From sequence record OQ708376.1: a stretch of 64,000 nt of DNA. The stretch is one strand, 5' to 3'. Positions 13,129 through 28,161 of the stretch are shown piece after piece (position 1 is the stretch's first letter; each line of letters opens with the position of its first letter). Under the pieces are notes generated by a model. The model saw only the letters and a program-made list of their open reading frames with translations. It was not told the DNA's origin and did no database searches. The stretch comes from Escherichia phage vB_EcoM_CRJP21. A program made the position numbers and the translations under genes.

Positions 13129-13137
13129 AAATAATTG

Positions 13138-13805: not shown

Positions 13806-13988
13806 ATGGCTAAATGCACTATCTGTAAGAAAGAAATCGTATTAGTTCCAAGTGCCCGTGAACGTGCCGCTCGGTTCGGTGGCAAAGCGTCAGACTATAC
13901 AAAAATGTTTACTACCCATGCAGCTTGCCAGGTAGCAAAACGTTCACAAGAAAGCGTAGAATTAATGCGTAAACTTTCCAAAAAATAA
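13806..13988 (+). CDS. hypothetical protein (60 aa, Cys-containing)
   Basis: track ORF; promoter + GGGGGAATGGTTCCCCTCC hairpin. Confidence 0.6.
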   Translation: MAKCTICKKEIVLVPSARERAARFGGKASDYTKMFTTHAACQVAKRSQESVELMRKLSKK

Positions 13989-14077
13989 GTATTGACAAAG
14001 TATCTTAGTACTGTATAATAGTTTACATCAAGCGAGGGGAATGGTTCCCCTCCTAACTAAAAGAGAGAGAAATAAAA

Positions 14078-14401
14078 ATGGCTATGATCCTTACCCAGAA
14101 AGTAGAACTGAAAATTGTAACCTCCTTTGACATTAAAGTTAATCGCTGGACTGATCGGAACGGTAACACTTACCACTCTTGCTACGTGTCCGCGTTAATT
14201 GGCGACCGCTGGGAAGACTTGGGACATGAAACCTTTACTTACGGTTACGGTACACAAGGAGAATACACGGGCTTGGAGATCATTAAAGAAACCGTTATAG
14301 GTTTCAACCCGAAAGAAAAAGTTATTCACCGCATCGAAAAAGAGATTAACAAAGAAATAACAGTTCGCTACTACGATGTAAAACGTAAGAAAGACATGTA
14401 A
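14078..14401 (+). CDS. hypothetical protein (107 aa), paralog of 7447..7770
   Basis: promoter/leader duplicated from the 13727 copy. Confidence 0.65.
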   Translation: MAMILTQKVELKIVTSFDIKVNRWTDRNGNTYHSCYVSALIGDRWEDLGHETFTYGYGTQGEYTGLEIIKETVIGFNPKEKVIHRIEKEINKEITVRYYDVKRKKDM

Positions 14402-14496
14402 TAGAATCCATTTAAAGTACTATTTGACATTGCCCAGATAGTACTTTATAATAGACTCTAACTTGTAGTACTAACTCAACTAATAGGATGTATACC

Positions 14497-14892
14497 ATGA
14501 TTACTAAATTCTACGCTACCCGTGAAGCTGCCCGTATTGTTGCACGCGAGGAAGGAGCAGCATTTAAAGACATGGGCAAAGATGCACCGAAAGGTCAACG
14601 CTGGGCCGTACAGTTCAAAGAAATCTCTGATATCGTGAATTCACCGGAGCCAGTACTAACAGCAGCAGAACTAAAACGAGCGGATTTACTGGCGGCAGTA
14701 CTTAACGCACAAGATGAATTTATCGCTGATTCTGATATCAAAGTACAGACAAACCATACCGCTTGGACTCACGCGGATCACCTGGCAAACCTTAAGCGTC
14801 CAAGTGAACTGGTTCGCAACCAGAAAGAGATCCGACACGACCGTAAGGGTAATCGTGTAACAGTATACAGTAAACGCCGCCAGGTTATCTAA
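14497..14892 (+). CDS. hypothetical protein (131 aa), paralog of 2520..2786
   Basis: ATG 8 nt after TAGGA; shared motifs. Confidence 0.6.
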   Translation: MITKFYATREAARIVAREEGAAFKDMGKDAPKGQRWAVQFKEISDIVNSPEPVLTAAELKRADLLAAVLNAQDEFIADSDIKVQTNHTAWTHADHLANLKRPSELVRNQKEIRHDRKGNRVTVYSKRRQVI

Positions 14893-14914
14893 TAACTTGC
14901 AGTACTAACAACAC

Positions 14915-14940
14915 GGCGGGATCAGTTCCCGCCTTTTTTA
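14915..14940 (+). terminator. rho-independent terminator
   Basis: GGCGGGA-tcagt-TCCCGCC + TTTTTT. Confidence 0.75.
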
Positions 14941-14954
14941 TAGGATAAACTAAA

Positions 14955-15209
14955 ATGATTAAGGTACAACTATCTAAAGATAATATCTTGCGGGTACACT
15001 ATAAAGCACCACAGAGAATCATCACAAAGGCCGTACAGCTTGCTAATGAGTTTATTAATGGTAACCTATTACCAAGGAAGTTAAGCAACGGAAAACTGCG
15101 TGTAATCGATGTAGACACTAACAACAGAATAGTAATTGAGAACACAGGAAAGATAAACCTATATGAACACCAACAATATAATAAGAAAATAAAACTAATA
15201 TCACGTTGA
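14955..15209 (+). CDS. hypothetical protein (84 aa)
   Basis: track ORF. Confidence 0.55.
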   Translation: MIKVQLSKDNILRVHYKAPQRIITKAVQLANEFINGNLLPRKLSNGKLRVIDVDTNNRIVIENTGKINLYEHQQYNKKIKLISR

Positions 15210-15262
15210 CAGTACTCAATTGTTTTAGTACTATGTACATATACCAACACGGGAGAAACAAA

Positions 15263-15481
15263 ATGAAATTATCTAAAATCGAAAAGAAAACTATTGATGA
15301 AGCAGTTAAGCACGGTTATACCTTTCGTAATGATTCACATTTTACCAATTTTCAACAAGGGTATCGTACTATTAAAAAACTCATTGACAAAGGTTTATTA
15401 GTTGAAGTCAATAACGGCAATGGTATTGAGTATCAACCAACACAAGACGCATTTTATTTTAAGAAATATAATATTATCTAA
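15263..15481 (+). CDS. hypothetical protein (72 aa)
   Basis: internal ATG after promoter TTGACAGTACTCAA... Confidence 0.55.
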   Translation: MKLSKIEKKTIDEAVKHGYTFRNDSHFTNFQQGYRTIKKLIDKGLLVEVNNGNGIEYQPTQDAFYFKKYNII

Positions 15482-15539
15482 TTGACAGTACTCAAATGTT
15501 TTAGTACTATATGTACATACCAACACGGGGAAAAACAAA

Positions 15540-15782
15540 ATGATTACTTTAGAAAAACGTATCAAAGAAACTACATCGCTGGTGGAACTGTTAACAGTAC
15601 TGAAATGCCGTACTACTCGGTTTAGTACACCGGACTTTATTAATATGGTTGATGTTAATGGTCGCTATCGTATCACGGTCGAACAAGGAGCGGCGAAAGT
15701 ATTCAGTACTAAAAACACTAAGGAAGTGATTCACGCTGTAAGTGTTAAAAAAGTAGTTGCCATTGATAGTAAAGTACTGTAA
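15540..15782 (+). CDS. hypothetical protein (80 aa)
   Basis: track ORF; promoter duplicated from upstream gene. Confidence 0.55.
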   Translation: MITLEKRIKETTSLVELLTVLKCRTTRFSTPDFINMVDVNGRYRITVEQGAAKVFSTKNTKEVIHAVSVKKVVAIDSKVL

Positions 15783-15813
15783 GATAGTTTCATTAACTCA
15801 AGGAGAACATGCA

Positions 15814-16398
15814 ATGCGTAATTATACTAAATTCATCCGTACCCTGTCAGAAATGGAAACCAACAAAGAGATCCTTTCAGCTTGTCGGTTAGCTGGTCTG
15901 GAGATCATCGGTGCGGGTTCTTCCCGTATTGTATTCGCTTTAAATGATCGGTTAGTGATTAAGGTCGCGAATTGTGATGCGGGTGTAGAACAAAATGAAA
16001 CTGAATGTAAGGTATGGAATTTTTTAGATTATGACCGCCCTCAATTGAAACAGTACTTTGCAAAGGTGCATATGCATTTATGCGATCCTGATAATATGTT
16101 TATCGTTATGGATCGGTTGAGTACTGCAAGTAAAGGCAGTGTAAAGCACGTAAACGCGTGCAATGAATTAAAGTACAATATTAAACGTAATGCCATTGAA
16201 CGCCAGCACCGCTTTGCTGATGCACTACAACACGTTGATGATACATTATCAACACTAACGATAAGAGATATCAGAAAACAGAATATCGGCCAGGATCGTA
16301 ATGGCCTTATTAAAGTACTTGATTACGGTTTAACCCGCAATATCTGGAATCAGTACTATAAAAAGCGTGATGTAGAAGCAAGTAAGGTAACACGATAA
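15814..16398 (+). CDS. protein-kinase-like protein (ePK/RIO/Kdo-kinase-like fold)
   Basis: Gly-rich loop IGAGSSRIVF, Lys motif VIKV, catalytic-loop-like IRDIRKQNIG, DFG-like LDYG; RBS AGGAG. Confidence 0.5.
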   Translation: MRNYTKFIRTLSEMETNKEILSACRLAGLEIIGAGSSRIVFALNDRLVIKVANCDAGVEQNETECKVWNFLDYDRPQLKQYFAKVHMHLCDPDNMFIVMDRLSTASKGSVKHVNACNELKYNIKRNAIERQHRFADALQHVDDTLSTLTIRDIRKQNIGQDRNGLIKVLDYGLTRNIWNQYYKKRDVEASKVTR

Positions 16399-16408
16399 AA
16401 AAGATTAA

Positions 16409-16498
16409 AAAAGGGATTGACTCCGGTCAGTCCCTTTGCTATTATATATTCATTGAGAGATAACTCACTGACCCATAGGGTGCGGAAGTGTATCTATT
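16409..16498 (+). repeat. intergenic cassette copy C (R3 + R2)
   Basis: near-identical to other copies. Confidence 0.55.
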
Positions 16499-16619
16499 AT
16501 ATAAGTATTCAGTACTGAAAACTATTTTTAAAAAAGTACTTGCATTGTACTTAGAATCAAGTATAATGTTTTACATAGAGAGGGGGAAATGGTTCTCCCT
16601 GGTAATAAGGAATAAAATC

Positions 16620-16841
16620 ATGACTACAATGACTTGCATTTACGCTTCCAATCTTCTGAATGATGCGGCCTTTAATGTTGATTCAGAATATCAATGTTAT
16701 CGGGATGAAAATAAAAAAGTTTTTGTAGTTGATAATAATGGTTTCCATATTGAATTACAATCCGGTTTCACTGGTGTTGATGGTAAATCAGTGTGGGGCG
16801 TACAGGATGATAAAGGCACATATCATTTTAAACGTAATTAA
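16620..16841 (+). CDS. hypothetical protein (73 aa)
   Basis: internal ATG after promoter and hairpin. Confidence 0.6.
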   Translation: MTTMTCIYASNLLNDAAFNVDSEYQCYRDENKKVFVVDNNGFHIELQSGFTGVDGKSVWGVQDDKGTYHFKRN

Positions 16842-16925
16842 GTATTGACAAAGTATATCAGTACTGTATAATAGTTTACATCAAGGGGAGAATAGTTCTC
16901 CCCGATACTAAAAGGAAACAAAATT

Positions 16926-17198
16926 ATGTCCAGCTACTCCGCTACTATGATCATTAAAGATATGAACGGTAATCCTACTTCTGCTGGTGGATCATTTGGA
17001 AACATTAATTTAGATGGTCGGTTATCCATGCAATCAGCCATCGATGCAGCGAAAGAAGTTTTTAAGAATGAATGTACTGTTAGTAAGATGGATTATATGG
17101 GATTCGCTATCGAGAAAACTAATCGTTTTGTGAACTACAAAAATCCACTGATGATTGATACTAACCTGAAAGCTAACGAAGTGGGGTACTTATTATGA
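16926..17198 (+). CDS. hypothetical protein (90 aa)
   Basis: track ORF; promoter TTGACA...TGTATAAT + hairpin. Confidence 0.6.
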   Translation: MSSYSATMIIKDMNGNPTSAGGSFGNINLDGRLSMQSAIDAAKEVFKNECTVSKMDYMGFAIEKTNRFVNYKNPLMIDTNLKANEVGYLL

Positions 17199-17386
17199 CA
17201 GTAGAAGAAGTTAAAAAAGTACTGGCAGTACTACGCTATCATAATCATTGCAAGGTGAAGAATGATCCTGATTATGTTGATTCATCCCTGGAGGAAGACA
17301 CATTAAACGCAATAAGCCATATGCAAACATTAGCAAAGCGTATGACCGAAAAGAATAGACCGGACTATATCGGAAATAAAATTTAA
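17195..17386 (+). CDS. hypothetical protein (63 aa)
   Basis: ATGA translational coupling. Confidence 0.55.
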   Translation: MTVEEVKKVLAVLRYHNHCKVKNDPDYVDSSLEEDTLNAISHMQTLAKRMTEKNRPDYIGNKI

Positions 17387-17472
17387 AAAGTACTTGCATT
17401 GTAGTTAGATTAACGTATAATGTTTTACATAGAGCGGGGGAATAGTTCTCCCGCCAGTCCAGGAGATACACC

Positions 17473-17736
17473 ATGAACACTATCGAAATCACTATCAATG
17501 CACACGTATACGACAACGTAGTACTGCAAACTACTATGACCGCTAATGATACCAGTACTTTGCGGAATACCGTTGTAAGTGCTGTATGTGCTGCAATCGG
17601 TGATGTAGCCCTGGAAAATGCAGAACACATCAACAACGGTTTCACTATGTGCAAACGTGATAACGCAAAACATATCATCTTAGAAGGTTACGGCGGTGTA
17701 GAATATAATCTTTATATGAAAAAAGTACTTGCATAA
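17473..17736 (+). CDS. hypothetical protein (87 aa)
   Basis: track ORF; promoter + hairpin; RBS AGGAGA. Confidence 0.65.
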   Translation: MNTIEITINAHVYDNVVLQTTMTANDTSTLRNTVVSAVCAAIGDVALENAEHINNGFTMCKRDNAKHIILEGYGGVEYNLYMKKVLA

Positions 17737-17803
17737 TAACTAAAACAAAGTATAATGTTTTGCATAGGGGGAGATATCCTCCCCCACTAAAAGGAGTAAT
17801 AAA

Positions 17804-18028
17804 ATGGCTAACTTTGATGAACTGATGCGGGAAGTAGCTAACCTGGCAGAAGAGAAGAAATCATTCGATTCTATCTATAACACCGCTCACCGTGATTCAG
17901 TACTGGCATGTACTCAGGATCAAAAAGATGAACTAATCGCCACCTATCATGAAGCATGGAAGTACTACCGACAATGGGAGAAAGAAGAAAGTGAGTCTAC
18001 CATTGACGGCCTCAATAATCTAATCTAA
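17804..18028 (+). CDS. hypothetical protein (74 aa)
   Basis: track ORF; promoter overlaps stop of upstream gene. Confidence 0.6.
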   Translation: MANFDELMREVANLAEEKKSFDSIYNTAHRDSVLACTQDQKDELIATYHEAWKYYRQWEKEESESTIDGLNNLI

Positions 18029-18104
18029 AAGTTTTATTTCAGTACTATTGACATAGCTTGATAGTACTGATGTAATAACTTTACTAACTACAAGGGGAAA
18101 CATA

Positions 18105-18362
18105 ATGGAACAGTTCACACAATATCGGGTAAATCCTCAAGCTATGGCCTACGTAGAAGACCATAAAACATTACCAGTACTGCAACCAGTTAAAGGCCAT
18201 ATCTATCGTGCTATGTCGTGGAGTACTGCACAGGATGGATATAAAACCGTTGCCGTGGGTATGTATTGCGGGAATGGTGAATGGTTTGATCCAAATAATC
18301 CGGTAGCCATTGACAGTACTGAAAAAATGAAATGGGCCGACTACATCGAAGATATTTCATAA
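18105..18362 (+). CDS. hypothetical protein (85 aa)
   Basis: track ORF; class-II promoter. Confidence 0.6.
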   Translation: MEQFTQYRVNPQAMAYVEDHKTLPVLQPVKGHIYRAMSWSTAQDGYKTVAVGMYCGNGEWFDPNNPVAIDSTEKMKWADYIEDIS

Positions 18363-18451
18363 AACTATTTGACAGTACTAACCAGTAATGTATAATGTTT
18401 TACATAGAGCGGGGGAATAGTTCTCCCGTCAATAGTTTGGAGTAAAACATT

Positions 18452-18652
18452 ATGTCTATCGCTATCGCCCTGGTTGAAGTACTGAAAGAAGCTAAAGCCA
18501 ACCTTATCGATGTACAGATTAAGGAATTACAAAATGGTTTAATCGGCTGTACTTGTACCGCTGGTGGAGCGGCAGACTATCGGGAATTCGAATCACTTGA
18601 ATCGATGGTCCGTTATCTTACCATGATCGTAGAAGATTGGAGAATCATCTAA
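18452..18652 (+). CDS. hypothetical protein (66 aa)
   Basis: track ORF; promoter + hairpin. Confidence 0.6.
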   Translation: MSIAIALVEVLKEAKANLIDVQIKELQNGLIGCTCTAGGAADYREFESLESMVRYLTMIVEDWRII

Positions 18653-18666
18653 CAAAAAAGAATAAA

Positions 18667-18790
18667 AAAAGGGATTGACTCCGGTCAGTCCCTTTGCTAT
18701 TATATACTCATAGACAAAAACTAGCCCACTGGGTGCAGGAGTGTATCTAAAATATATAGTTAATAACGGTGAGTAACTATCTGCTGGTGG
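18667..18790 (+). repeat. intergenic cassette copy D (R3 + R2) followed by Chi octamer 18783-18790
   Basis: direct read. Confidence 0.55.
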
Positions 18791-18898
18791 GGTGAAAACT
18801 ATTAATAAAAAAAGTATTGACAAAGTATATCAGTACTGCAATAATGTATCTCGTAGGGCGGCAATGGTGCGACGGCCCACAAAGTTAGGAGATTCAAA

Positions 18899-19231
18899 AT
18901 GAGTACTTCAATCGCTATCGTTAAAGCTTTCATCCGTACCAATGTTTCATCTGTATTCATCGACGGTCTGGATCGGGAAGTAGAATACTCAATCATTATC
19001 GCACAGACTGCAAACGGTGCTCGGTATATCCTTAATGATAGTGAAGCAAATCACTACTACTTCACTAAAGCTACTGGCTTTAAACGCATCGATGCTGACG
19101 TAGTATACACTAAGATGAATAAGCTGGTAGACAAGATTAACGCGAAAGGTACTATCGATTTACAGTACTGGACCGAAACCGATCCAGAATATGGATCTCA
19201 CCGCTACCTGAATCCAGGTATTAAAATGTAA
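18899..19231 (+). CDS. hypothetical protein (110 aa)
   Basis: track ORF; RBS AGGAG. Confidence 0.65.
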   Translation: MSTSIAIVKAFIRTNVSSVFIDGLDREVEYSIIIAQTANGARYILNDSEANHYYFTKATGFKRIDADVVYTKMNKLVDKINAKGTIDLQYWTETDPEYGSHRYLNPGIKM

Positions 19232-19320
19232 AAAGTACTTGCATAGTACTTAGAATCAAGTATAATGTTTTACATAGAGAGGGGGAAATGGTTCTCCCTC
19301 CTAAATTAAGGAGTTTTATC

Positions 19321-19722
19321 ATGACCTTCTCAATCAATTCCTTCGCTGACGTTTTAGTACTGGCTCGGACTTTCGGTAAAGATGCACTGGAGTACGCTGT
19401 AAGTAATGGTACTATCCAACCGGAACAGTGCCGCATCATTGGAAACTGCAAACGTTGGGCGGTATCCAATACTATTGCACTGGAAAACTTCCACGATGGC
19501 AACAATGAATATTCTGTTGATGTAGTATTCGAAGCCGTTGATCTCGGCGGTATCTATAATACTAACCTGAATGATGTGCGTATCGTTCGCACGGGGTTCG
19601 GTGCTTATGATGTATCTATTCGTGAAGCTATGAACACCGGATACATTAGCAAGGACTTACTTGCTCACATCATGCAGCTGTGTACGGAACGTAACGAAGC
19701 ACGCACTATCTTAGGACTGTAA
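19321..19722 (+). CDS. hypothetical protein (133 aa)
   Basis: internal ATG 7 nt after AAGGAG. Confidence 0.65.
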   Translation: MTFSINSFADVLVLARTFGKDALEYAVSNGTIQPEQCRIIGNCKRWAVSNTIALENFHDGNNEYSVDVVFEAVDLGGIYNTNLNDVRIVRTGFGAYDVSIREAMNTGYISKDLLAHIMQLCTERNEARTILGL

Positions 19723-19747
19723 GCGTTACACATCACCAAACATCATA

Positions 19748-19767
19748 GGCCGCCTTGTAGCGGCCTT
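19748..19767 (+). terminator. candidate terminator hairpin
   Basis: AGGCCGC-cttgta-GCGGCCT, weak U-run. Confidence 0.35.
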
Positions 19768-19790
19768 AACTATATCAGGAGGGCATACAT

Positions 19791-20000
19791 ATGTTCTATA
19801 CAGTATACAGCGTTCTAGGTACTATTGCAGGCGTACATGATAACGTCAATGATGCTATGCGTACAGTACTGCAACAGGTTCCACTAAAGCCTAAGACCAT
19901 TAAGCAGATGACAGCACGACTAACCAGGGCGACCGATGGCGTGGAAGTATGGCAGGACTACGGGGATACACAGATAATCGTTAGCGTAACGAAGGATTAA
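19791..20000 (+). CDS. hypothetical protein (69 aa)
   Basis: track ORF; RBS AGGAGGG. Confidence 0.55.
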   Translation: MFYTVYSVLGTIAGVHDNVNDAMRTVLQQVPLKPKTIKQMTARLTRATDGVEVWQDYGDTQIIVSVTKD

Positions 20001-20028
20001 TGCGTAAAGGGATCTAGTACTGATTCAG

Positions 20029-20094
20029 AAAAAAGTCAAGGCGTTTTTAAAATTATGCGTTAAAAAAATGCATAGGTAATCCCTTGACTTTTTT
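20029..20094. promoter_or_regulatory. large inverted repeat (13-bp arms AAAAAAGTCAAGG / CCTTGACTTTTTT) at boundary to paralog array
   Basis: direct read; loop about 40 nt. Confidence 0.45.
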
Positions 20095-20192
20095 GAAATA
20101 AAAGGGATTGGACTATGGCAAAATGCGTAGGGGGCTAAAGGGCGGGTAACCTTAGCGACTTCGATAAAGGGGTATTACGAATAAAATGTTAT

Positions 20193-20221
20193 TGACTTTT
20201 TATACAATTCATATATTATAT
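20193..20221 (+). promoter_or_regulatory. candidate promoter of family-1 array (TTGACT + AT-rich -10)
   Basis: TTGACT then TATTAT/TTATAT; exact -10 uncertain. Confidence 0.4.
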
Positions 20222-20249
20222 GATTGATATTATTTTCAAGGGAGTCCCT

Positions 20250-20447
20250 ATGCGTATTTTAACTCAAGCAGAACACCACGAAAGACTTATCAATAACATG
20301 GCTATGATAATGTATAAGTCACATGAACGTGGTATTTCCTATAAGCGTGAATTAATTATGGCACTATTCATTGGAACTAACTTTCAGGAAAGGTATGTCA
20401 AGGATTGGATTTGGTATTTAATTGAAGATGTAACGAGTAAACTATGA
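20250..20447 (+). CDS. family-1 small protein (LGTNYQ-core family)
   Basis: core FIGTNFQERYV; ATG 7 nt after AGGGAG. Confidence 0.6.
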   Translation: MRILTQAEHHERLINNMAMIMYKSHERGISYKRELIMALFIGTNFQERYVKDWIWYLIEDVTSKL

Positions 20448-20644
20448 AAATGCGTAAATTAACCGAAAAAGAATATCAAGCACTGTTACGTAAAAACTTC
20501 ACAAAGATTTATAATACAGACACACACGTAGAACGAATGGAGTTATACCTTTTGATTACATTGGGAACAAACTATCAGGGTAGATGGGTGTGGCAATATA
20601 TGGATACATTGAAAAATAAAATATTGTCCACGAGGAAACAATGA
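20444..20644 (+). CDS. family-1 small protein
   Basis: core LGTNYQGRWV; ATGA coupling. Confidence 0.6.
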   Translation: MKMRKLTEKEYQALLRKNFTKIYNTDTHVERMELYLLITLGTNYQGRWVWQYMDTLKNKILSTRKQ

Positions 20645-20850
20645 AAACTATAACACGAACCCAATCATACGGTCTTATCTTGAAATACATGGACTTAATG
20701 GTGGATATCAGCAAAGACCTTCCTAAAACTGAAATTGAAGTTGCAAGAGCAGAGATCCGCATGTTGGCTGTACTGAACACAAACCATCAGGAAGATTATG
20801 TTGAAGAATGGATTCGATTTTTAATAGAAGATATAAAGAGTAAACTATGA
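20641..20850 (+). CDS. family-1 small protein
   Basis: core LNTNHQEDYV; coupled. Confidence 0.6.
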   Translation: MKTITRTQSYGLILKYMDLMVDISKDLPKTEIEVARAEIRMLAVLNTNHQEDYVEEWIRFLIEDIKSKL

Positions 20851-21062
20851 TTATTATAGAAAACTCATATCAATATACTGAACGCATCGCTGCCAGACAA
20901 CTTGAAATCCTCATAATATACGAAGAGACTTCTGATTTAAACTTAGCCGAGGTATTGGAAAATGAAATACTTTTGGGTGCATTCTTAGGAACAGACTATC
21001 AGAAGTATTATGAGGAAAAGTATTTGTCATCTCTTGAGAAATATATCAGGAGCAAATTATGA
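20847..21062 (+). CDS. family-1 small protein
   Basis: core LGTDYQKYY; coupled. Confidence 0.6.
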   Translation: MIIIENSYQYTERIAARQLEILIIYEETSDLNLAEVLENEILLGAFLGTDYQKYYEEKYLSSLEKYIRSKL

Positions 21063-21271
21063 TTTTTTTAACACCAGAAGAATATAAGAAACGTTTCAAT
21101 TCCGCACAGGGTGAAATCTTACTTATATACCTTTCAAATGCAGACCTTAACTTATCAAGGGTATTAGAAAAAGATTTACTTATGGGTGCATTCCTTGATA
21201 CAGACTTTCAGGTGTATTATGTAGGGGAATACTTAATTGCACTTCAGAATTATATCAGGAGTAAACTATGA
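21059..21271 (+). CDS. family-1 small protein
   Basis: core LDTDFQVYYV; coupled. Confidence 0.6.
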   Translation: MIFLTPEEYKKRFNSAQGEILLIYLSNADLNLSRVLEKDLLMGAFLDTDFQVYYVGEYLIALQNYIRSKL

Positions 21272-21495
21272 AACATTTAAGTAATATTGAGAAGATGAGA
21301 ATTATCATTGATGCATTAAACAAATACGATACCCTTTTACAAATAAAAGGTTTAACTCGATTGGAACACAAGATAAACACCACCGATGTACGCATGATGG
21401 CTGTACTGGGGACGAACTTCCAGGAAGAGTATGTTATTGCACACATAGTTGCACTCAAGAATTACATTATGGACAAATGTAATGAACATCATTAA
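21268..21495 (+). CDS. family-1 small protein
   Basis: core LGTNFQEEYV; coupled. Confidence 0.6.
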   Translation: MKHLSNIEKMRIIIDALNKYDTLLQIKGLTRLEHKINTTDVRMMAVLGTNFQEEYVIAHIVALKNYIMDKCNEHH

Positions 21496-21706
21496 TAACT
21501 TTGAATACGAGGCCCGTGCTAAGAGTGCCAGAAAAAAAGAGAACACCATTTACTTCACTATGATGTACTTACAATGGACTGAAATTGAAGAAAAGGTTGC
21601 TGAAGTATGGATGTTGGAATTCATGGGGACGCAGTATCAGAATAGGTTTGCGGGTGAGTATATCAATGTTCTTATGAAACAAATAGAAAGAAAGGAAAAG
21701 AACTAA
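21482..21706 (+). CDS. family-1 small protein
   Basis: core MGTQYQNRF; internal ATG chosen. Confidence 0.5.
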   Translation: MNIINNFEYEARAKSARKKENTIYFTMMYLQWTEIEEKVAEVWMLEFMGTQYQNRFAGEYINVLMKQIERKEKN

Positions 21707-21864
21707 TGGTTTTCATTAACATATCTGACCAACTCGATACTAAACTAGAAGTCGAGCAGAGTGAGGGATGGATGCTGTACTTTCTTGGAACTTCTCATCA
21801 AAATTTTTATATCCATGAACACATAGTTGCACTCACAAATCTAATAAGGGATAAATGTAAATGA
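21706..21864 (+). CDS. family-1 small protein (52 aa, not in track)
   Basis: core LGTSHQNFY; TAATG coupling. Confidence 0.5.
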   Translation: MVFINISDQLDTKLEVEQSEGWMLYFLGTSHQNFYIHEHIVALTNLIRDKCK

Positions 21865-22118
21865 AACACTTGACGAACGATGAATATTCACTTAGAATTC
21901 GAAAGCTCACCCCAGAAGCAAGAGTAATCTACGATGACGGTGAACTTTCATGGAACGAGATGAAAGTTAAAGTTCATGAGCTATGGTTGCTGTACTTTGT
22001 GGGAACCCAATATCAAGAGAAATATTGTACCGATTATCTTGAACAACTAATGGATCTTATACAGATAAAACTAAATGAACGAATTGTGGAAAAATATGAA
22101 GACTTTATCAAGCACTGA
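21861..22118 (+). CDS. family-1 small protein
   Basis: core VGTQYQEKY. Confidence 0.55.
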   Translation: MKHLTNDEYSLRIRKLTPEARVIYDDGELSWNEMKVKVHELWLLYFVGTQYQEKYCTDYLEQLMDLIQIKLNERIVEKYEDFIKH

Positions 22119-22347
22119 GTATCAGACTGCCCTCTTCTCCCTTCTAAACACTCTCCGCACGAACAATAAACTTTATAATTCCCGTGAAGCTGATATCGTC
22201 AACGGTGATGTTTATCTTATGAAATTCATTGGAACAAACTATCAAGAACTGTTCACTCAACGATATATCTCTGCACTGAGAAACGAAATATCAGATAAAA
22301 CCCGCCAAGCCAGAAGAGAATGGAAGAGACAATGCAACAAAGACTAA
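22096..22347 (+). CDS. family-1 small protein
   Basis: core IGTNYQELF; N-term MKTLSSTEYQ. Confidence 0.55.
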   Translation: MKTLSSTEYQTALFSLLNTLRTNNKLYNSREADIVNGDVYLMKFIGTNYQELFTQRYISALRNEISDKTRQARREWKRQCNKD

Positions 22348-22583
22348 ATCACAAAATGTATTTTAAACTATTACAGAATCTGGGACAAAAACACTATGAT
22401 ACAGTATCTGAAATATTACCCTATGATATCATGCGTTTAATTCATAGTGAGGCAGAGATGCTTGTACTGATGACAGGCACTGATAAAACAGCAATTACCA
22501 AATCTATAGATATGTTCATCGATGCACACTGCCAACACATTAGAACCGAGATATGGAGACGTGAGAATGAAAATCCTGACTGA
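22320..22583 (+). CDS. family-1-like small protein (divergent core)
   Basis: core LVLMTGTDKTAIT; start uncertain. Confidence 0.45.
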   Translation: MEETMQQRLNHKMYFKLLQNLGQKHYDTVSEILPYDIMRLIHSEAEMLVLMTGTDKTAITKSIDMFIDAHCQHIRTEIWRRENENPD

Positions 22584-22782
22584 GCATGAGTATTACAATA
22601 GGTTAAGAACTATACAAGGAAAAGTCTCGTGGACTTTTTTAGATAATTCTATTGCAGAAGCGGACCGATGTGTTATAATAGCTGAAATGAAGCTATTACT
22701 CTTCATTGGGACAAACTATCAAAGTATCTACATAGACGCATGGTTAAGCAGCTTACGTCTGAAGTCGGTGAGTTTAAAATGA
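22567..22782 (+). CDS. family-1 small protein
   Basis: core IGTNYQSIYI; N-term MKILTEHEY. Confidence 0.55.
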   Translation: MKILTEHEYYNRLRTIQGKVSWTFLDNSIAEADRCVIIAEMKLLLFIGTNYQSIYIDAWLSSLRLKSVSLK

Positions 22783-22997
22783 GAAAATTAATAGGTTTCG
22801 AATATGTTAAGCTTCTACAAACCTGTGGAATCAGAAGGAGAATGATTCAAAAGGATAAAAGAATTGCCGAAGAACGAAAGTATATAATGATAACTGAACT
22901 TTATGTCTTAACACTCTTAGGCACAAACTATCAACACACTTATGTAGACCTATGGATCGATGCACTACAGAAAGAGGTTAAAAGTAAATGCAAATGA
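22779..22997 (+). CDS. family-1 small protein
   Basis: core LGTNYQHTYV; ATGA coupling. Confidence 0.55.
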   Translation: MRKLIGFEYVKLLQTCGIRRRMIQKDKRIAEERKYIMITELYVLTLLGTNYQHTYVDLWIDALQKEVKSKCK

Positions 22998-23206
22998 TTA
23001 ATTTAAGTAAAGACGAATTTTATGTTATACTGGCGAAAACTTATCCAGCACGTAAGGCCGTTTATGATAGTAACATTATTGAACCCTCAAAGAAGTTGAT
23101 TTTAGTAAATGAGATAAAGATGCTTTCAGTCTTAGGGACAAACTATCAAGAGAATGCTGTACTGATGTTAATTGATGCCCTCCAGCGAGAGGTTAAACGT
23201 AAATGA
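22988..23206 (+). CDS. family-1 small protein
   Basis: core LGTNYQENAV. Confidence 0.6.
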   Translation: MQMINLSKDEFYVILAKTYPARKAVYDSNIIEPSKKLILVNEIKMLSVLGTNYQENAVLMLIDALQREVKRK

Positions 23207-23433
23207 AAATGATTCATTTAACTTACCATGAATATCAAAAACGTTTAAATGCATCCAGAGATATAAGGATTCAAATATTCAATAACAAAAGATTGAAGCC
23301 TGATATCAGAAAAATCAAAATTATAGAAGCAGAGTTATGCAACTTTCTAGGGACCAACTATCAGGCAGGTAAGGTAAAAAACTATCTTAGAGAACTAATG
23401 AATAGTATTGAAAATAAATGTAAGGGTAATTAA
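23203..23433 (+). CDS. family-1 small protein
   Basis: core LGTNYQAGKV. Confidence 0.6.
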   Translation: MKMIHLTYHEYQKRLNASRDIRIQIFNNKRLKPDIRKIKIIEAELCNFLGTNYQAGKVKNYLRELMNSIENKCKGN

Positions 23434-23434
23434 C

Positions 23435-23674
23435 ATGAAAATGATTAAATTATCTCAAGCAAAATATAAAGAACGCCTGGTGAAAATTGCACCTGGACTT
23501 AATGAAATCCATCACGGAGAAGTCATTAAACACGGAAATAAGATGATTATGAAACTTGAGTTAAAGGTGGGTGCATTCATAGGAACAAACTATCAGGAGT
23601 ATTATGTAGATGAATACATAATCGCACTTAAGAGATACATTGGAAGAAAACTATATCTACAAACTAAAGAATAG
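23435..23674 (+). CDS. family-1 small protein
   Basis: core IGTNYQEYYV; N-term MKMIKLSQAKY. Confidence 0.55.
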   Translation: MKMIKLSQAKYKERLVKIAPGLNEIHHGEVIKHGNKMIMKLELKVGAFIGTNYQEYYVDEYIIALKRYIGRKLYLQTKE

Positions 23675-23703
23675 TATTGAAAATAAATGTGAGGTTGATG
23701 AAC

Positions 23704-23967
23704 ATGCAAATGATCAATTTAAGTAAAGATGAATATACCGAGCGTATGACAAAAATTACGCACAAACGTAATACAATCTATCACAACCCAGAAATTCAAC
23801 ACAGTAAGAAAATGATTATGATGCGTGAGTTAAAGATGGGTGTATTCTTAGGAACAAACTATCAAGATACAGAAGTAAATCGCTTAATCGCGGAGTTACT
23901 ACTGGAAATCAGAGGTAAGCTGTACTTTCATCAAATGACCCAACCACTGAGGTGTACTGATCGATGA
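23704..23967 (+). CDS. family-1 small protein (tandem duplicate of 23435 gene)
   Basis: core LGTNYQDTEV; duplicated junction upstream. Confidence 0.55.
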   Translation: MQMINLSKDEYTERMTKITHKRNTIYHNPEIQHSKKMIMMRELKMGVFLGTNYQDTEVNRLIAELLLEIRGKLYFHQMTQPLRCTDR

Positions 23968-24215
23968 ATACTATGAATAAAATTAATAAAATCGACTTAG
24001 CAGAAAGTTTTGCCAGAATGGGGGAAGCTCTGAAAAGATACGAAAAGGAATATGGTCATTTAAGCTTTTCTATAGAAAAGAGATATGAACTGGAAACAGA
24101 GTTTAAAATGCAGAGTCTCTTAGGAACACAATATCAAACAAGATATGTTCAAACTTGGATTGATTGTTTAATCCAGACAATTCATGTAAGGAACATTAAA
24201 TGCAAAATGAAATGA
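23964..24215 (+). CDS. family-1 small protein
   Basis: core LGTQYQTRYV. Confidence 0.6.
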   Translation: MNTMNKINKIDLAESFARMGEALKRYEKEYGHLSFSIEKRYELETEFKMQSLLGTQYQTRYVQTWIDCLIQTIHVRNIKCKMK

Positions 24216-24454
24216 TATACTTAACCTATAATGAATACGTCGAGAGATTAGTTCGTGCCAAGAGATATACCAATAAACGTCCAATTGACCTAAACCAAAC
24301 CCCAGCAGAAAGGAGTGCAGAAGTATTATTCCAATCACTACCATATCTTCTGGGAACTGATAGACAAGAGGAATATGTTGCACGTATGATTAGATATCTT
24401 AAAATCACTATTAAGGAAAAAGTAAATGCAAATGAAATACTTAACAGACGATGA
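24200..24454 (+). CDS. family-1 small protein
   Basis: core LGTDRQEEYV. Confidence 0.55.
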   Translation: MQNEMIYLTYNEYVERLVRAKRYTNKRPIDLNQTPAERSAEVLFQSLPYLLGTDRQEEYVARMIRYLKITIKEKVNANEILNRR

Positions 24455-24677
24455 GTTAAAAGAACGACTAATTAAATCAAGAAAACATACAAATCAACTT
24501 CCAAACGACACAAACAAGTCTCCAGCGGAAAGGAGTGCAGAAGTTTTATACATTCAACTCATGTACTTTCTTGGCACTGACAGACAAGAGTATTACATTG
24601 AAAGTATGCTTCGATATCTTAAATTCTCTATAAAGGAAAAGATACATGATCAAGTATTTAAAAATCCTAACAGTTAA
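24426..24677 (+). CDS. family-1 small protein
   Basis: core LGTDRQEYYI. Confidence 0.55.
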   Translation: MQMKYLTDDELKERLIKSRKHTNQLPNDTNKSPAERSAEVLYIQLMYFLGTDRQEYYIESMLRYLKFSIKEKIHDQVFKNPNS

Positions 24678-24888
24678 TGAATATCATAAGATTGTAATGA
24701 AAACTAATAGTGATTACGCTAAAAAATCAAACCCAAAGTACATACTGGAACACACATTTGAAGAACGTCAATTAGCTTTAGTTGAAGCAAAACTTCTTGC
24801 ACTATTAGGAACAAACTATCAGGAAGAATACAATAGAAAACTAATATACCTTTTAACTAAACATATAAGAAAAAGAAAAAATGCATGA
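24646..24888 (+). CDS. family-1 small protein
   Basis: core LGTNYQEEY. Confidence 0.55.
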   Translation: MIKYLKILTVNEYHKIVMKTNSDYAKKSNPKYILEHTFEERQLALVEAKLLALLGTNYQEEYNRKLIYLLTKHIRKRKNA

Positions 24889-25115
24889 AACACTTGACAG
24901 ATGATGAACATGGGCTTATAGTAATGGATGTAATCAACATCGAATACAAAAAGTTGATACGCTATCGTTGTTATGAAGATAAGCAACTCGTTCTAGCAGA
25001 ACAGAAGTTGTTTCGACTCTTAAACACAAACTACCAAGCACAATACGAAGAATCGTATATGTACCTTTTGGCGAGGAAAGCAAAAAGAGATTATGAAAAT
25101 TTTAAGCAAAGGTGA
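24885..25115 (+). CDS. family-1 small protein
   Basis: core LNTNYQAQY. Confidence 0.6.
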   Translation: MKHLTDDEHGLIVMDVINIEYKKLIRYRCYEDKQLVLAEQKLFRLLNTNYQAQYEESYMYLLARKAKRDYENFKQR

Positions 25116-25314
25116 TTCAGTAATATTACTTATAGAGAGTTCAAGTAAATTCTTAAACATAACACTGTCTGATATAGATGAAGATGACAAAGAAGTACTG
25201 AGAGCAGATTTAAGAGTACTGTTACATATCGGAACAAACCTACAAGAAGAATATGTAGAGTGCTACATCAATGAACTTAAAGAATCAGTACTGAGAAAAT
25301 GCAAATGCAAATGA
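25093..25314 (+). CDS. family-1 small protein
   Basis: core IGTNLQEEYV. Confidence 0.55.
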   Translation: MKILSKGDSVILLIESSSKFLNITLSDIDEDDKEVLRADLRVLLHIGTNLQEEYVECYINELKESVLRKCKCK

Positions 25315-25532
25315 AAATCATTACCGATGTAGAATACCTAACAATCATAAATGGACTGTTTTTGAAGCTCTTCGTCATTAACACATCAGATATACCAGAT
25401 ATGGATAAAATTATTAAGAGAAATGAAGTCTATGTTCTAGCTACCCTTGGAACGAACTATCAAGAACACGACATTAAAGATTATATTAATACACTTAAAC
25501 GAGCGATTGAACTAAAATGCCAAAACCACTAG
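25299..25532 (+). CDS. family-1 small protein
   Basis: core LGTNYQEHDI. Confidence 0.55.
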   Translation: MQMQMKIITDVEYLTIINGLFLKLFVINTSDIPDMDKIIKRNEVYVLATLGTNYQEHDIKDYINTLKRAIELKCQNH

Positions 25533-25732
25533 GAACAGCAGAATACATTGAACTCATGGGATTACACTTCTCATCCTTTCAGAAACTTATGCGAGAATCA
25601 AAGAATGATTTAGAATATACCATCAGAGGTTCCGATTTAAGAATGCTTCTCACCCTAGACACAGATTCCCAAGAGCGATTTGTCAATGAGCATATTAGAG
25701 CACTTTTAATGGAAATTAAAAGTAAACTATGA
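25517..25732 (+). CDS. family-1 small protein
   Basis: core LDTDSQERFV. Confidence 0.55.
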   Translation: MPKPLGTAEYIELMGLHFSSFQKLMRESKNDLEYTIRGSDLRMLLTLDTDSQERFVNEHIRALLMEIKSKL

Positions 25733-25944
25733 AGATAATATCAAACCAAGAGTACTTGGCACTATTCAGGAAGAATAATCACAAATATATGGCACTTGAT
25801 TCAAGAACTGATATAAGTGAACTTGAAAAAAATCTTTTGCGTTCAGATATGATAGTACTGACACTCTTAGGAACACAGCATCAAGAGAGAACTGTTAATT
25901 CACACATAGGTATTCTTATACAGATTGTACAGGAAAAGATATGA
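25729..25944 (+). CDS. family-1 small protein
   Basis: core LGTQHQERTV. Confidence 0.6.
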   Translation: MKIISNQEYLALFRKNNHKYMALDSRTDISELEKNLLRSDMIVLTLLGTQHQERTVNSHIGILIQIVQEKI

Positions 25945-26162
25945 GAATCATATCACAACAAGATATTCTTAAGTTCACAAGGGTTCATGCATCTGAATTT
26001 GATGCTATATTATCAAAAAGTTACAACAACCCTTATACACAAGATGTACATTACAGTGAATTATGGATGTATATACTTTTAGGTACAAATAAGCAAGAGC
26101 AAGCCGTACAGAAGTATTTGACAGCTTTACGTGATGCTACAGCTAATGGAGTATGTGTTTAA
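25941..26162 (+). CDS. family-1 small protein
   Basis: core LGTNKQEQAV. Confidence 0.6.
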   Translation: MRIISQQDILKFTRVHASEFDAILSKSYNNPYTQDVHYSELWMYILLGTNKQEQAVQKYLTALRDATANGVCV

Positions 26163-26163
26163 T

Positions 26164-26406
26164 ATGAAAGTACTATCTGAATTAGAAATGTATCATAGAT
26201 TTAATAAGTACTATCATTTACTTAAGCCTATACAGAGGATTAAATGTCCATTTGAAGAGAAACAGGTATTAATTTATGAGCATAAGTTATTTGTATCATT
26301 AGGTACGAATGAACAAGAGTATTATTTGAAGTTGTACTTGATTACATTAATAGATTTAATTCACTATAAAACCAAACAAGCTAATAAAGAGAAATATGAA
26401 AACTAA
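26164..26406 (+). CDS. family-1 small protein
   Basis: core LGTNEQEYYL; N-term MKVLSELEMY. Confidence 0.55.
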   Translation: MKVLSELEMYHRFNKYYHLLKPIQRIKCPFEEKQVLIYEHKLFVSLGTNEQEYYLKLYLITLIDLIHYKTKQANKEKYEN

Positions 26407-27415: not shown

Positions 27416-27732
27416 AATTTAATATAGCAAAAACATCGAATGTATGTATATTTGGTTATGCAGATGAGTTAGGTGATATTGACATTCTTTTGTACAAAAA
27501 GGATGGTGTTATGCATTTCAAGTACCAGGATGAAGAGGCAGACAATTATCCTTTACCTAATTTAGTACAAATGCAGGAAGAGGAATTATTCCAGTACAGC
27601 TTAGTATATGACATTGATATTTGCACGATGCCAGTACTAATTAATATTCAAAAAGTGATGCTCGATGTGTTTGATAGGCTAATACAAGGCACACAAGGAA
27701 GAACCATATATGTCAATGTACAAGACAATTAA
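27412..27732 (+). CDS. family-2 protein
   Basis: core EELFQYSLVYD; ATGA coupling, RBS GGAGG. Confidence 0.6.
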   Translation: MKFNIAKTSNVCIFGYADELGDIDILLYKKDGVMHFKYQDEEADNYPLPNLVQMQEEELFQYSLVYDIDICTMPVLINIQKVMLDVFDRLIQGTQGRTIYVNVQDN

Positions 27733-27925
27733 TCAAGAATGGAAGACCCAAAAGTACAGGGAATTCAGTACTAGTTTAACAAAAGATGCATTGAATTTAA
27801 AAAGAACAGAGTTTGATATGTTTATTTTTCTTGGAACACGTTCACAGGAACAATACATTCATTATTATATAAGTTCATTGCGAACGGAGATCGTATACAA
27901 AACACAGGGTATTATAAAAAAGTAA
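27710..27925 (+). CDS. family-1 small protein (outlying copy)
   Basis: core LGTRSQEQYI. Confidence 0.5.
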   Translation: MSMYKTINQEWKTQKYREFSTSLTKDALNLKRTEFDMFIFLGTRSQEQYIHYYISSLRTEIVYKTQGIIKK

Positions 27926-27933: not shown

Positions 27934-28161
27934 TTGTACGCTACAAAGTACAGGGATTTTTGTTTAAAGGGTGGTGATGAAGATTTTTCTTTGCGATTAT
28001 CAGAATTTAATCTGTTATTTTATCTTGGTACATCGGAACAAGAAGAAATGGCACAGAAATTTATCAAGCACCTTGAACAAAAAATTCATATGCAAATTTT
28101 GATGCTTAAGGTACATAATGAGATAAACAAATATGAACCCAACAATAGTACAGGATCTTAA
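27934..28161 (+). CDS. family-1 small protein (outlying copy, TTG start)
   Basis: core LGTSEQEEMA; no in-frame ATG. Confidence 0.4.
   Translation: MYATKYRDFCLKGGDEDFSLRLSEFNLLFYLGTSEQEEMAQKFIKHLEQKIHMQILMLKVHNEINKYEPNNSTGS

Follow-up and report, generated by a model that had tools for sequence, protein, structure and literature searches.

Locus and gene content

The window analysed here, a stretch of 64,000 nucleotides from Escherichia phage vB_EcoM_CRJP21 (OQ708376.1), is the left end of the genome of an Asteriusvirus (PBECO4/121Q-like) jumbo phage, a 350-kb phage of E. coli. Its position 1 aligns with position 1 of phage vB_Ec-M-J (OQ718158), whose annotated direct terminal repeat (DTR, 1-21525) is 100% identical to its own right end. 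Mapping from vB_Ec-M-J places the end of the left DTR of the window at about 20152 ('gggcgggtaacct'). This repeat (1..20152, + strand) carries about 47 small genes, each with a sigma70-type promoter, including genes for a GNAT and a kinase-like protein. It contains 106 promoter-like sites, 11 of them perfect on the + strand, versus 67±7 in shuffled sequences.

The first unique DNA past this ~20-kb repeat is an array of small genes, designated family 1, whose start lies about 100 bp beyond the end of the DTR. As the earlier note had described, it consists of 28 consecutive + strand ORFs (20220-26406); the genes delimited by family-aligned starts span 20250-26406 and encode 52-85 aa. A candidate sigma70-like promoter (20192..20219, + strand, TTGACT-16-TATTAT), recognized by consensus match only (10 of 12 positions), lies in unique DNA 40 bp past the DTR end; its hexamers are common to vB_Ec-M-J, the spacer differing at a few bases. 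Between 17 and 29 kb, promoter-like sites show no excess over chance (41 versus 57.5 expected), and no convincing internal terminator was found in the array.

All genes are on the + strand. Gene 1 (20250..20447, 65 aa from the aligned Met) belongs to an ORF that opens at 20220 and is preceded by AAGGGAG, and gene 2 (20450..20644, 64 aa) has an alternative start at 20444. Genes 3 (20641..20850, 69 aa), 4 (20847..21062, 71 aa), 5 (21059..21271, 70 aa) and 6 (21268..21495, 75 aa) each begin in an ATGA overlap, the last two with an AGGAG Shine-Dalgarno sequence that, for gene 5, lies within the tail of the preceding gene. They are followed by gene 7 (21482..21706, 74 aa, ORF opening at 21449) and by gene 8 (21706..21864), the member below 60 aa that had been noticed previously, which indeed exists but is truncated to 52 aa and devoid of helix 1. 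Then come genes 9 (21861..22118, 85 aa, ATGA overlap), 10 (22096..22347, 83 aa, ORF opening at 22075), the aberrant gene 11 (22332..22583, 83 aa), 12 (22567..22782, 71 aa, ORF opening at 22522), 13 (22779..22997, 72 aa, ORF opening at 22740), 14 (22994..23206, 70 aa, alternative start 22988) and 15 (23209..23433, 74 aa, alternative start 23203). Gene 16 (23441..23674, 77 aa) and its youngest duplicate, gene 17 (23710..23967, 85 aa), are the closest pair at the DNA level (74% nucleotide identity over 226 nt). The remainder comprises genes 18 (23973..24215, 80 aa), 19 (24212..24454, 80 aa), 20 (24432..24677, 81 aa), 21 (24646..24888, 80 aa), 22 (24885..25115, 76 aa), 23 (25093..25314, 73 aa), 24 (25311..25532, 73 aa), 25 (25517..25732, 71 aa), 26 (25729..25944, 71 aa) and 27 (25941..26162, 73 aa), among which 22, 26 and 27 start in ATGA overlaps. 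Gene 28 (26164..26406, 80 aa, ORF opening at 26131) ends the contiguous array, and a second family of paralogues, family 2 (the F-Q family), extends from 26396.

A profile HMM built from the 28 array ORFs recovers all of them (E 4e-27 to 2e-15) and, among the 546 ORFs of the window, detects exactly four further copies and nothing else, the next-best ORF having E=0.22. These are the four outliers that the earlier note had placed at 27710-28161 and 40734-41121: 27710..27925 (71 aa, E 4e-12), located among family-2 genes, 27934..28161 (75 aa, TTG start, E 1e-7), 40734..40952 (72 aa, E 1.5e-6, with GS in place of GT) and 40930..41121 (63 aa, E 1.4e-11), all on the + strand. With 28+4 copies of a protein of about 70 aa, the copy number can rightly be called unusual. 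With leave-one-out profiles, 31 of the 32 copies score E<=9e-8, versus E>=1.8 for shuffled copies. The exception, gene 11 (E=0.77), lacks the conserved Gln and carries a 6-residue insertion; it would be an intruder or else a highly diverged member.

The genes of the array are genuinely protein-coding and form one polycistronic block, and all family-1 ORFs are intact. When family-aligned starts are used, 21 of the 27 junctions overlap the preceding gene, 12 of them as ATGA, and at 5 others the start lies within 7 nt past the preceding stop. Furthermore, Shine-Dalgarno-like cores precede 11 of the 32 starts (3.6±1.8 at random positions), and the last codons of the genes partly serve as the ribosome-binding site of the next one (e.g. 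ATC AGG AGY AAA). The start/stop overlaps favour coupled translation, which is plausible, as had been suggested.

Sequence motifs, predicted fold and relatives

The alignment of the copies bears out both an N-terminal motif, MKxL(T/S)xxEY, and a core motif, [LFI]-G-T-[NDQ]-[YFH]-Q-E-x-[YF]-[VI], close to those first noticed; the K-rich tail noticed with them is borne out only in part, a single Lys (K70) being conserved. T49, Q52 and L63 are each conserved in 31 of the 32 copies. The constraint bears on the protein and not on a DNA motif, since the G, T and Q of the motif use every synonymous codon. Paralogues of the window nevertheless share a mean protein identity of about 26% and at most 56%, the fold signature being retained at 25%.

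The family-1 protein is confidently predicted to be a soluble three-helix bundle of about 70 aa. Indeed, AlphaFold (AF2), run on the gene 16 copy with an input alignment made of paralogues from one genome, gives such a bundle with a pLDDT of 96.9 and a pTM of 0.82 (helices 6-25, 31-45 and 52-76). In this model, an N-terminal residue is clamped to the turn between helices 2 and 3, residue 2 bridging to residue 49. Sequence and helical geometry suggest that the scaffold is formed by the conserved residues, i.e. hydrophobic a/d positions, caps and core-facing polar residues. Among these, T5-x-x-E8 and N50-x-x-E53 would be helix N-capping boxes and G48 a Gly C-cap, while Q52 and K70 would lie on the arc turned towards the core, as would Glu40, probably bonded to Tyr/Trp/His59; burial of the conserved polar residues is deduced from helical periodicity. 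Column entropy stays under 2.4 bits in the core and the motifs and exceeds 3 bits at most other positions, and nearly all exposed positions appear to vary between paralogues. The proteins have a net charge ranging from -6 to +8 and a pI from 4.5 to 9.85, half of the copies being neutral or acidic, and contain 0-3 Cys, no CxxC pairs and no Cys/His metal site.

No specific structural or sequence relative was found in PDB, BFVD, Pfam, NCBIfam or PADLOC, and database searches found no known anti-defence or takeover family resembling family 1. The sole match is PHROG 4148 (with phrog_28039), matched by 31 of the 32 copies (best E 9e-27; 16 copies for phrog_28039). These entries correspond to the same family, already clustered automatically, but come without function, structure or description of an array, and hence show only that the family exists. 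Family 1 belongs to RaK2-like jumbo phages: it is found only in Asteriusvirus (22-34 copies, including 27 at the same locus in 121Q), in Alcyoneusvirus (12 copies in RaK2) and in uncultured relatives (17-18 in an uncultured contig), always in multiple copies (12-34). The RaK2 copies are dispersed in small groups, so the family can do without a long coupled array.

Selection and rearrangement

Comparison with four Asteriusvirus genomes gives a pooled dN/dS of 0.35-0.43. Within orthologue pairs, which are not phylogenetically independent, omega is 0.23 (bootstrap 0.20-0.27) at conserved columns and 0.45 (0.39-0.51) at variable columns. Orthologues are therefore under purifying selection, also at positions that vary between paralogues. 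Point-mutational arms-race selection left no signal, pooled omega being <1 everywhere. Constraints on solubility and helix propensity alone could account for the value of 0.45 at surface columns.

The family-1 locus is a variability hot spot. Depending on the sister phage, 9-32% of family-1 genes have a best match below 70% identity, versus 2-8% of the adjoining DTR genes, and the median identity with vB_Ec-M-J is 74% for family 1 versus 96.6% for DTR genes. Copies at 100% identity adjoin copies at about 43%; for example, gene 18 shares only 43% identity with its same-position counterpart in slurp01 and 121Q. At 70% identity, the 205 copies collected from 8 genomes or contigs form 95 clusters, and a single cluster includes two copies from the same genome. 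A 378-bp segment encompassing genes 7 and 8 is missing from phages UB and vB_Ec-M-J; it is bracketed by a 45-nt direct repeat (21438..21482 and 21816..21860, + strand, 80% identical), the trace of an unequal crossover. Globally, the copy number and content of the array change by unequal crossover and cassette replacement.

Possible roles of the array

The most likely explanation, although put forward tentatively, is that the array encodes an early-expressed battery of specific small binders involved in host takeover or anti-defence.

A rather unlikely alternative is that all paralogues do a common job: each would bind one shared target or small molecule and act as a sponge, as a stoichiometric inhibitor, or as an abundant protein of structural or chaperone-like type. 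Copy number would then provide quantity, coupled translation giving a high and equal output, and divergence would guard the array from recombinational collapse. The site would be the conserved pole made of the N-terminal strand, the GTNYQ turn and the Tyr9/51/55/59 ladder, and a strongly conserved cluster does lie at one end of the bundle (T49 and Q52, but also N50, E8, E40 and the four Tyr). Moreover, with an overall omega of about 0.4, much of the protein is under weak constraint. However, these polar residues seem to occupy core-facing arcs or helix-capping positions, purifying selection within orthologues extends to the variable columns, the net charge differs widely between copies, and no structural match to known sponge proteins was obtained. 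Furthermore, near-identical copies, which selection for dose would tolerate, are absent from all genomes examined. This also distinguishes the array from the recent K3L-type 'gene accordion' amplifications of poxviruses, in which transient near-identical copies supply dose: in both cases a small accessory gene of a virus is repeated in tandem, but the closest family-1 pair shares only 56% protein and 74% DNA identity.

There is little probability that the genes are genome filler, supplied by tandem duplication after capsid enlargement and contributing little function themselves, or none. Hua et al. (2017, mBio, PMC5646251) read an array of >30 similar genes in 121Q as a genome-expanding tandem duplication, in line with their ratchet idea. 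This is the single mention of the 121Q array in the literature, where it was never analysed: it consists of one sentence that, being devoid of gene numbers, may mean family 1, family 2 or both, and comes without analysis of structure, selection or position. Paralogue arrays do make up about 44 kb of the window, and homology reveals no function. However, the copies are not 'very similar', every ORF is intact, omega is 0.23-0.45 and not about 1, the fold signature is maintained despite divergence, the family persists in two genera and uncultured lineages, and even the divergent gene 11 is 100% identical in 121Q.

It is similarly improbable that family-1 proteins are partners of family 2, acting as its adaptors, chaperones or antidotes. 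Genes of the two families are found together and interleaved in all lineages examined, among them Asteriusvirus, RaK2 (40 kb with 12 and 28 copies, respectively) and the uncultured contig, and outlying family-1 pairs lie inside the family-2 block. However, there is neither 1:1 pairing nor copy match (32 family-1 versus at least 39 family-2 copies, 12 versus 28, and 18 versus 8), no family-2 gene lies among the 28 contiguous family-1 genes, and the families have no sequence or fold relation. A functional link is possible; a shared fold is not.

DNA-binding regulators or nucleoid proteins are very improbable: the L-G-T-x-x-Q-x-x-[YF]-[VI] segment superficially resembles the turn of a helix-turn-helix and the zinc-ribbon copies of phage G have been proposed as transcription factors (PMC7824862), but no HTH or other DNA-binding family was matched in Pfam or NCBIfam, the helices, with 15-25 residues, exceed the length of those in a classical HTH, half of the copies are neutral or acidic, and the spread of charge and pI speaks against a single nucleic-acid-binding or DNA-mimic role common to all copies. 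Finally, the earlier note's guess of family 1 as a minimal form of the family-2 fold deserves almost no credence, as HMM-HMM comparison (hhalign) gives a probability of 0.2% and a family-2 member is predicted to form a beta-meander (strands 27-62) followed by two helices (pLDDT 65.5) instead of an all-alpha bundle; both families do have, where a helix starts, an aromatic-Gln pattern with acidic and hydrophobic residues after it, but this is what a generic helix N-terminus (capping residue, then acidic ones) would show.

Expansions of this size have a precedent in phage G, a jumbo phage with about 35 zinc-ribbon genes resulting from a lineage-specific expansion (Iyer et al. 2021, PMC7824862). 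In both cases a single small protein of obscure role is present in about 30-35 copies, but the fold, lineage and host differ and family 1 has no metal site. The MGF110/360/505 families of ASFV and the ankyrin/host-range genes of poxviruses are multigene families located beside terminal repeats, whose role in host range and immune evasion is established experimentally. Like family 1, they are diverged tandem paralogues in a locus more variable than its neighbours, and unequal recombination alters their copy number, so that even close strains differ; proteins and hosts are unrelated, and a comparable role for family 1 would be by analogy. The host-takeover module of SPO1, the pre-early genes of T5 and the class I genes of T7 are early takeover modules located in terminal repeats. 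Their small homologue-less proteins are encoded at the first-entering end and read by host RNA polymerase, an architecture that the DTR part of the window shares, and early DTR transcription is seen in PA5oct. However, they comprise many unrelated genes with their own promoters, whereas family 1 is a single family repeated ~30x beside the repeat, as an operon of overlapping genes with few promoters.

Early expression of the battery of binders is suggested by the position of the array just past the DTR end and by its promoter-like site. The promoter-dense DTR points in the same direction, as does PA5oct, a related jumbo phage that relies on host RNA polymerase and whose DTR genes are highly transcribed early genes (PMC7318152). 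Family-1 proteins would be produced by host RNA polymerase within minutes of DNA entry and in roughly equal amounts. Diversity rather than dose is favoured because of the low maximal identity and the near absence of same-genome pairs in the clusters, and the surfaces do not seem to drift freely, given the omega at variable columns. Together they would form a repertoire in which one scaffold carries about 30 different surfaces, each protein acting stoichiometrically, as a binder or inhibitor, to neutralise or redirect a different variable protein of the host or of a competing element, for example a defence or abortive-infection factor. Selection would then act on the breadth of the repertoire and not on its dose.

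Content and distribution of the array

The tandem genes of family 1, which encode proteins of about 70 aa with a GTNYQ core, constitute a selected, clade-specific multi-copy family, predicted to adopt a three-helix fold, that occupies the first unique DNA past the left direct terminal repeat (DTR) of the genome. The tandem array claimed in the earlier note is real: 20220-26406 is filled with 28 consecutive ORFs, all on the + strand. A profile of the array genes, searched against 546 ORFs (≥30 aa, both strands of the window), recovers all 28 and exactly four more (27710-27925, 27934-28161, 40734-40952 and 40930-41121; E 4e-12 to 1.5e-6), which bears out the four outlying copies proposed in that note; the search found no further family-1 ORF, the next best having E=0.22. 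The conservation, also anticipated there, is above chance, as leave-one-out profiles find 31 of the 32 copies at E≤9e-8 versus E≥1.8 for shuffled sequences. Mean identity among the copies is 26%, T49, Q52 and L63 each occur in 31/32 of them, and 31 of the 32 match the PHROG family phrog_4148 (best E 8.6e-27). The sole copy that fails the leave-one-out test (E 0.77) is encoded by 22332-22583, where TGTD and a six-residue insertion, without Gln, replace GTNYQ. Its product is unchanged in 121Q (100% identity) and keeps 81-85% identity in other Asteriusviruses, and it may be either a very divergent member of the family or an intruder.

At the family-aligned starts, 21 of the 27 gene junctions overlap the preceding gene (12 as ATGA) and another five have a start at most 7 nt past the preceding stop. 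From these start/stop overlaps, a translationally coupled operon is plausible. Shine-Dalgarno-like cores are enriched ahead of the starts (11/32 versus 3.6±1.8 expected), some of them being codons of the conserved C-terminal 'I-R-S-K'. All synonymous codons of the motif Gly, Thr and Gln are in use, and the DNA-level repeats of the array, found around the motif, are short and 60-80% identical. Therefore, conservation bears on the protein and not on a DNA motif, and the same two observations rule out an array of DNA-level repeats or binding sites.

A profile search of 1.84 billion representative proteins retrieved 101 clusters, all of 51-122 aa; those with a named source come from Asteriusvirus phages, from phage-sized contigs within E. 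coli assemblies and from the Klebsiella phages K64-1 and RCIP0023. By consensus tblastn, 45 of 50,697 phage records match (35 Escherichia/Salmonella and 10 Klebsiella); at this sensitivity, GAP32, CBB, PA5oct and Eneladusvirus gave zero matches. The copy number is 32 in the window, 34 in slurp01, 32 in UB, 27 in 121Q, 22 in Turkey5 and at least 29 in vB_Ec-M-J (30 kb examined). RaK2 carries 12 copies scattered in small groups, and an uncultured 101-kb contig carries 17-18 within a 20-kb stretch. An additional C-terminal domain of about 50 aa is fused to some of the versions in RaK2 and in metagenomes (3917-4303 and 7582-7929 of the RaK2 locus; proteins P0084, P0087, P0197 and P0199); this domain has no match in Pfam and could give a hint at the partners of family 1. 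On the metagenome contig ERZ14189038 NODE_1, which belongs to an uncultured relative, a ParE_like (toxin-family) gene (5375-5626) sits directly upstream of that contig's own family-1 array, among early genes that each have their own promoter.

Position beside the terminal repeat

Escherichia phages slurp01 and PBECO4, of the genus Asteriusvirus, share about 92% identity with the window, whose position 1 aligns to position 1 of the linear vB_Ec-M-J record. The direct terminal repeat annotated at 1-21525 in this record was verified to be 100% identical to the right end of the record; mapped by homology, its end falls at about 20152 in the window, and the array begins about 100 bp further. Terminal repeats of 20,993 and 20,668 bp are reported in sister phages (PMC13070987; PMC11895373). 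Judged from sequence alignment, position 1 of the window is the physical left terminus of the phage genome and 1-20152 is the left DTR.

The DTR holds about 47 small genes on the + strand, separated by spacers of about 90 nt, and nearly every one is preceded by a near-consensus sigma70-like promoter. It contains 106 sigma70-like sites versus 67±7 expected, including 11 perfect ones on the + strand (TTGACA-16/17-TATAAT). Its genes include one for a GNAT acetyltransferase (11432-11788) and, by a weak match, one for a protein-kinase-like product (15757-16398). The DTR looks like a host-takeover module. In PA5oct, described as related to 121Q/PBECO4 and RaK2, the genes of the terminal repeat are highly transcribed early genes that are transcribed by the host RNA polymerase (PMC7318152). 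A 38-nt element, AAAGGGATTGACTCCGGTCAGTCCCTTTGCTATTATAT, is repeated at 13140-13177, 16410-16447 and 18668-18705, with a variant at 9113-9150. Its terminator-like hairpin, with a 12-bp stem, holds the -35 hexamer of a TTGACT-17-TATTAT promoter, and the element may serve early genes as an intervening cassette that combines terminator and promoter.

A candidate promoter of the array (TTGACT-16-TATTAT, 20192-20219), recognized by consensus match only, lies 40 bp past the DTR end, and the first family-1 gene starts at 20250; both hexamers are identical in vB_Ec-M-J. The array itself has no spacers and no convincing terminator on the + strand, and the sole strong promoter-like match inside it is a by-product of 'HLTD' codons. 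Across the whole window, neither a tRNA gene nor an Rfam match was found. G+C content falls from about 0.38 in the terminal repeat (1-20000) to 0.30-0.35 over the paralogue arrays (20001-64000), GC skew remains positive over the whole length and every gene lies on the same strand.

Just past the paralogue arrays, 59509-60560 contains two genes, one encoding a DNA N6-adenine methyltransferase of Dam type (Pfam Dam, E 2e-31) and the other a nucleotidyltransferase-like product (weak CTP_transf_like match). Further on, a third tandem family (61778-63923) comprises about seven genes of 88-103 aa, with N-termini such as 'LNDIQFTYKxLYxLY'; two members tested gave no Pfam match.

Predicted fold and conserved residues

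From an alignment of the 32 paralogous sequences, AlphaFold2 predicts a three-helix bundle (pLDDT 96.9, pTM 0.82) with helices at 6-25, 31-45 and 52-76 and with residue 2 bridged to residue 49. No relative of family 1 was found in Pfam, NCBIfam, PADLOC or PDB sequences, and its only named home is PHROG 4148, whose function field reads unknown. Furthermore, neither sequence nor structural similarity was found to known anti-defence or defence-associated proteins (PADLOC models; solved anti-CRISPR, sponge and inhibitor structures).

The conserved columns are heptad-like hydrophobic positions together with E8, E40, G48, T49, N50, Q52, E53 and K70, and most other columns have an entropy above 3 bits. 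Helical periodicity and general knowledge of helix capping suggest that T5-x-x-E8 and N50-x-x-E53 are N-capping boxes and that G48 is a helix C-cap. By the same periodicity, E40, Q52 and K70 would be centred on core-facing arcs, E40 being at the height of position 59, where only Tyr, Trp or His occurs. The simplest view of the core motif, whose conserved residues occupy such probable capping and core-facing positions, is therefore that of a structural staple, and what varies between copies would most simply be the exposed surface.

Diversification and possible roles

The array would be expressed early by the host RNA polymerase, and its products would act as small stoichiometric binders, a repertoire in which each paralogue has its own surface, directed against variable host or competitor proteins for takeover or anti-defence. 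Taken as a whole, this chain is the favoured reading and quite possible, although still tentative. A narrower version, in which the array is a virus-carried germline 'binder library' against polymorphic host defence or abortive-infection proteins, thereby allowing many strains to be infected, is more doubtful. It would combine one rigid three-helix scaffold, about 30 surfaces per genome (at least 95 surface types exist among eight genomes or contigs) and whole cassettes apparently swapped between co-circulating phages.

The array could also provide a high dose of copies that all do the same job, which appears rather unlikely. Within the window, the top identity between two copies is 56%, and the 205 copies of the eight genomes or contigs fall into 95 clusters at 70% identity; at 90%, no cluster contains two copies from one genome. 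Recent dosage amplification ('gene accordion') is rejected by this absence of near-identical tandem copies, the best DNA repeat of the array being 74% identical. Sister phages display a mosaic of orthologue identity, with 100% identical copies adjoining copies about 43% identical at the same position. The best match is below 70% identity for 9-32% of family-1 genes versus 2-8% of adjacent DTR genes; judging from these identities, replacement is commoner in the former. In addition, the window and slurp01 share a 378-bp two-gene segment (21487-21815 and flanks) that UB and vB_Ec-M-J lack, and a 45-nt direct repeat, situated at the 3' ends of paralogues, borders it on both sides; at sequence level, this indel is a clear footprint of unequal crossover. 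The diversity seems to result from old divergence and cassette exchange.

Another reading, filler from genome expansion, is improbable. Pooled dN/dS is 0.35-0.43 and gives no signal of positive selection; it is 0.23 (0.20-0.27) in conserved columns and 0.45 (0.39-0.51) in paralogue-variable ones, all these values coming from orthologue pairs that are mutually non-independent. The values by column indicate that the genes are kept by selection and that the surface of each paralogue is conserved to a degree.

Family 2, the neighbouring tandem family of 100-200 aa proteins with an invariant F-Q ('EEYFQxSLV'), gives at least 39 profile hits over 26396-54707. A functional partnership with it has a small chance of being right; it is favoured by the interleaving of the two families in every lineage checked, including RaK2, where 28 family-2 copies are interleaved with family 1 in a 40-kb locus. 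With its ExxYFQ-S motif, family 2 recalls the cleavage site of TEV/3C proteases; this reading of the invariant Gln was set aside, the motif being within a predicted helix in family 2 and the Gln core-facing, by helical periodicity, in family 1.

That the copies are DNA-binding regulators is very improbable, as no HTH family was detected at threshold in Pfam or NCBIfam, the model has no structural likeness to an HTH domain, and net charge ranges from -6 to +8 (pI 4.5-9.85) without any uniform basic character, a spread that also speaks against a uniform DNA mimic or histone-like role. The guess that family 1 is a minimal version of the family-2 fold finds no support and is the least probable reading, since hhalign gives a probability of 0.2% over one aligned column and the three helices of family 1 differ from the beta-meander (strands 27-62) followed by two helices predicted, with moderate confidence (pLDDT 65.5), for one family-2 member.

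The existence of the array had already been noted and the family automatically clustered, as shown by a passing mention in Hua et al. (PMC5646251), echoed by the phAPEC6 paper, and by PHROG 4148. No analysis of the array was found in the genome papers examined, and a broad review of jumbo phages (PMC7824862) covers the expanded zinc ribbons of phage G without describing the present array. What appears to be new is the predicted fold, the location at the edge of the repeat, the confinement to two genera, the lack of near-identical copies, the pattern of selection and the footprint of crossover. As a kind, the array resembles lineage-specific expansions in other jumbo phages, but its protein has no detectable relatives; the paired Cys/His metal-binding motifs of a zinc-ribbon expansion of the phage G type are absent from family 1, whose copies contain 0-3 Cys each and share no conserved Cys column. 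Like the terminal multigene families of large eukaryotic DNA viruses, it consists of tandem diverged paralogues beside a terminal repeat and varies in copy number and content among close strains (22-34 copies in Asteriusvirus). The literature searched contained no experimental data on a role of the array in host range or immune evasion.

Large parts of jumbo phage genomes consist of genes of unknown function, and the repeated small genes described here occupy about 6 kb, or about 44 kb with the neighbouring families. The issue at stake is whether such arrays are filler resulting from capsid enlargement or working repertoires. The array makes this question directly testable, being compact, located at a defined place past the DTR and provided with natural copy-number variants, and several tractable host-phage pairs exist (K-12 with Sharanji, phAPEC6). 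If the array is filler, the capsid-ratchet model of genome growth would be supported. If it is a repertoire of binders, the broad host range of these therapeutic-candidate phages would be partly accounted for, and the array would offer protein engineers a naturally diversified 70-residue scaffold. If it is more precisely a binder library, it would be for phages what the host-range multigene families are for poxviruses and ASFV, with a fold without known relatives as its basis.
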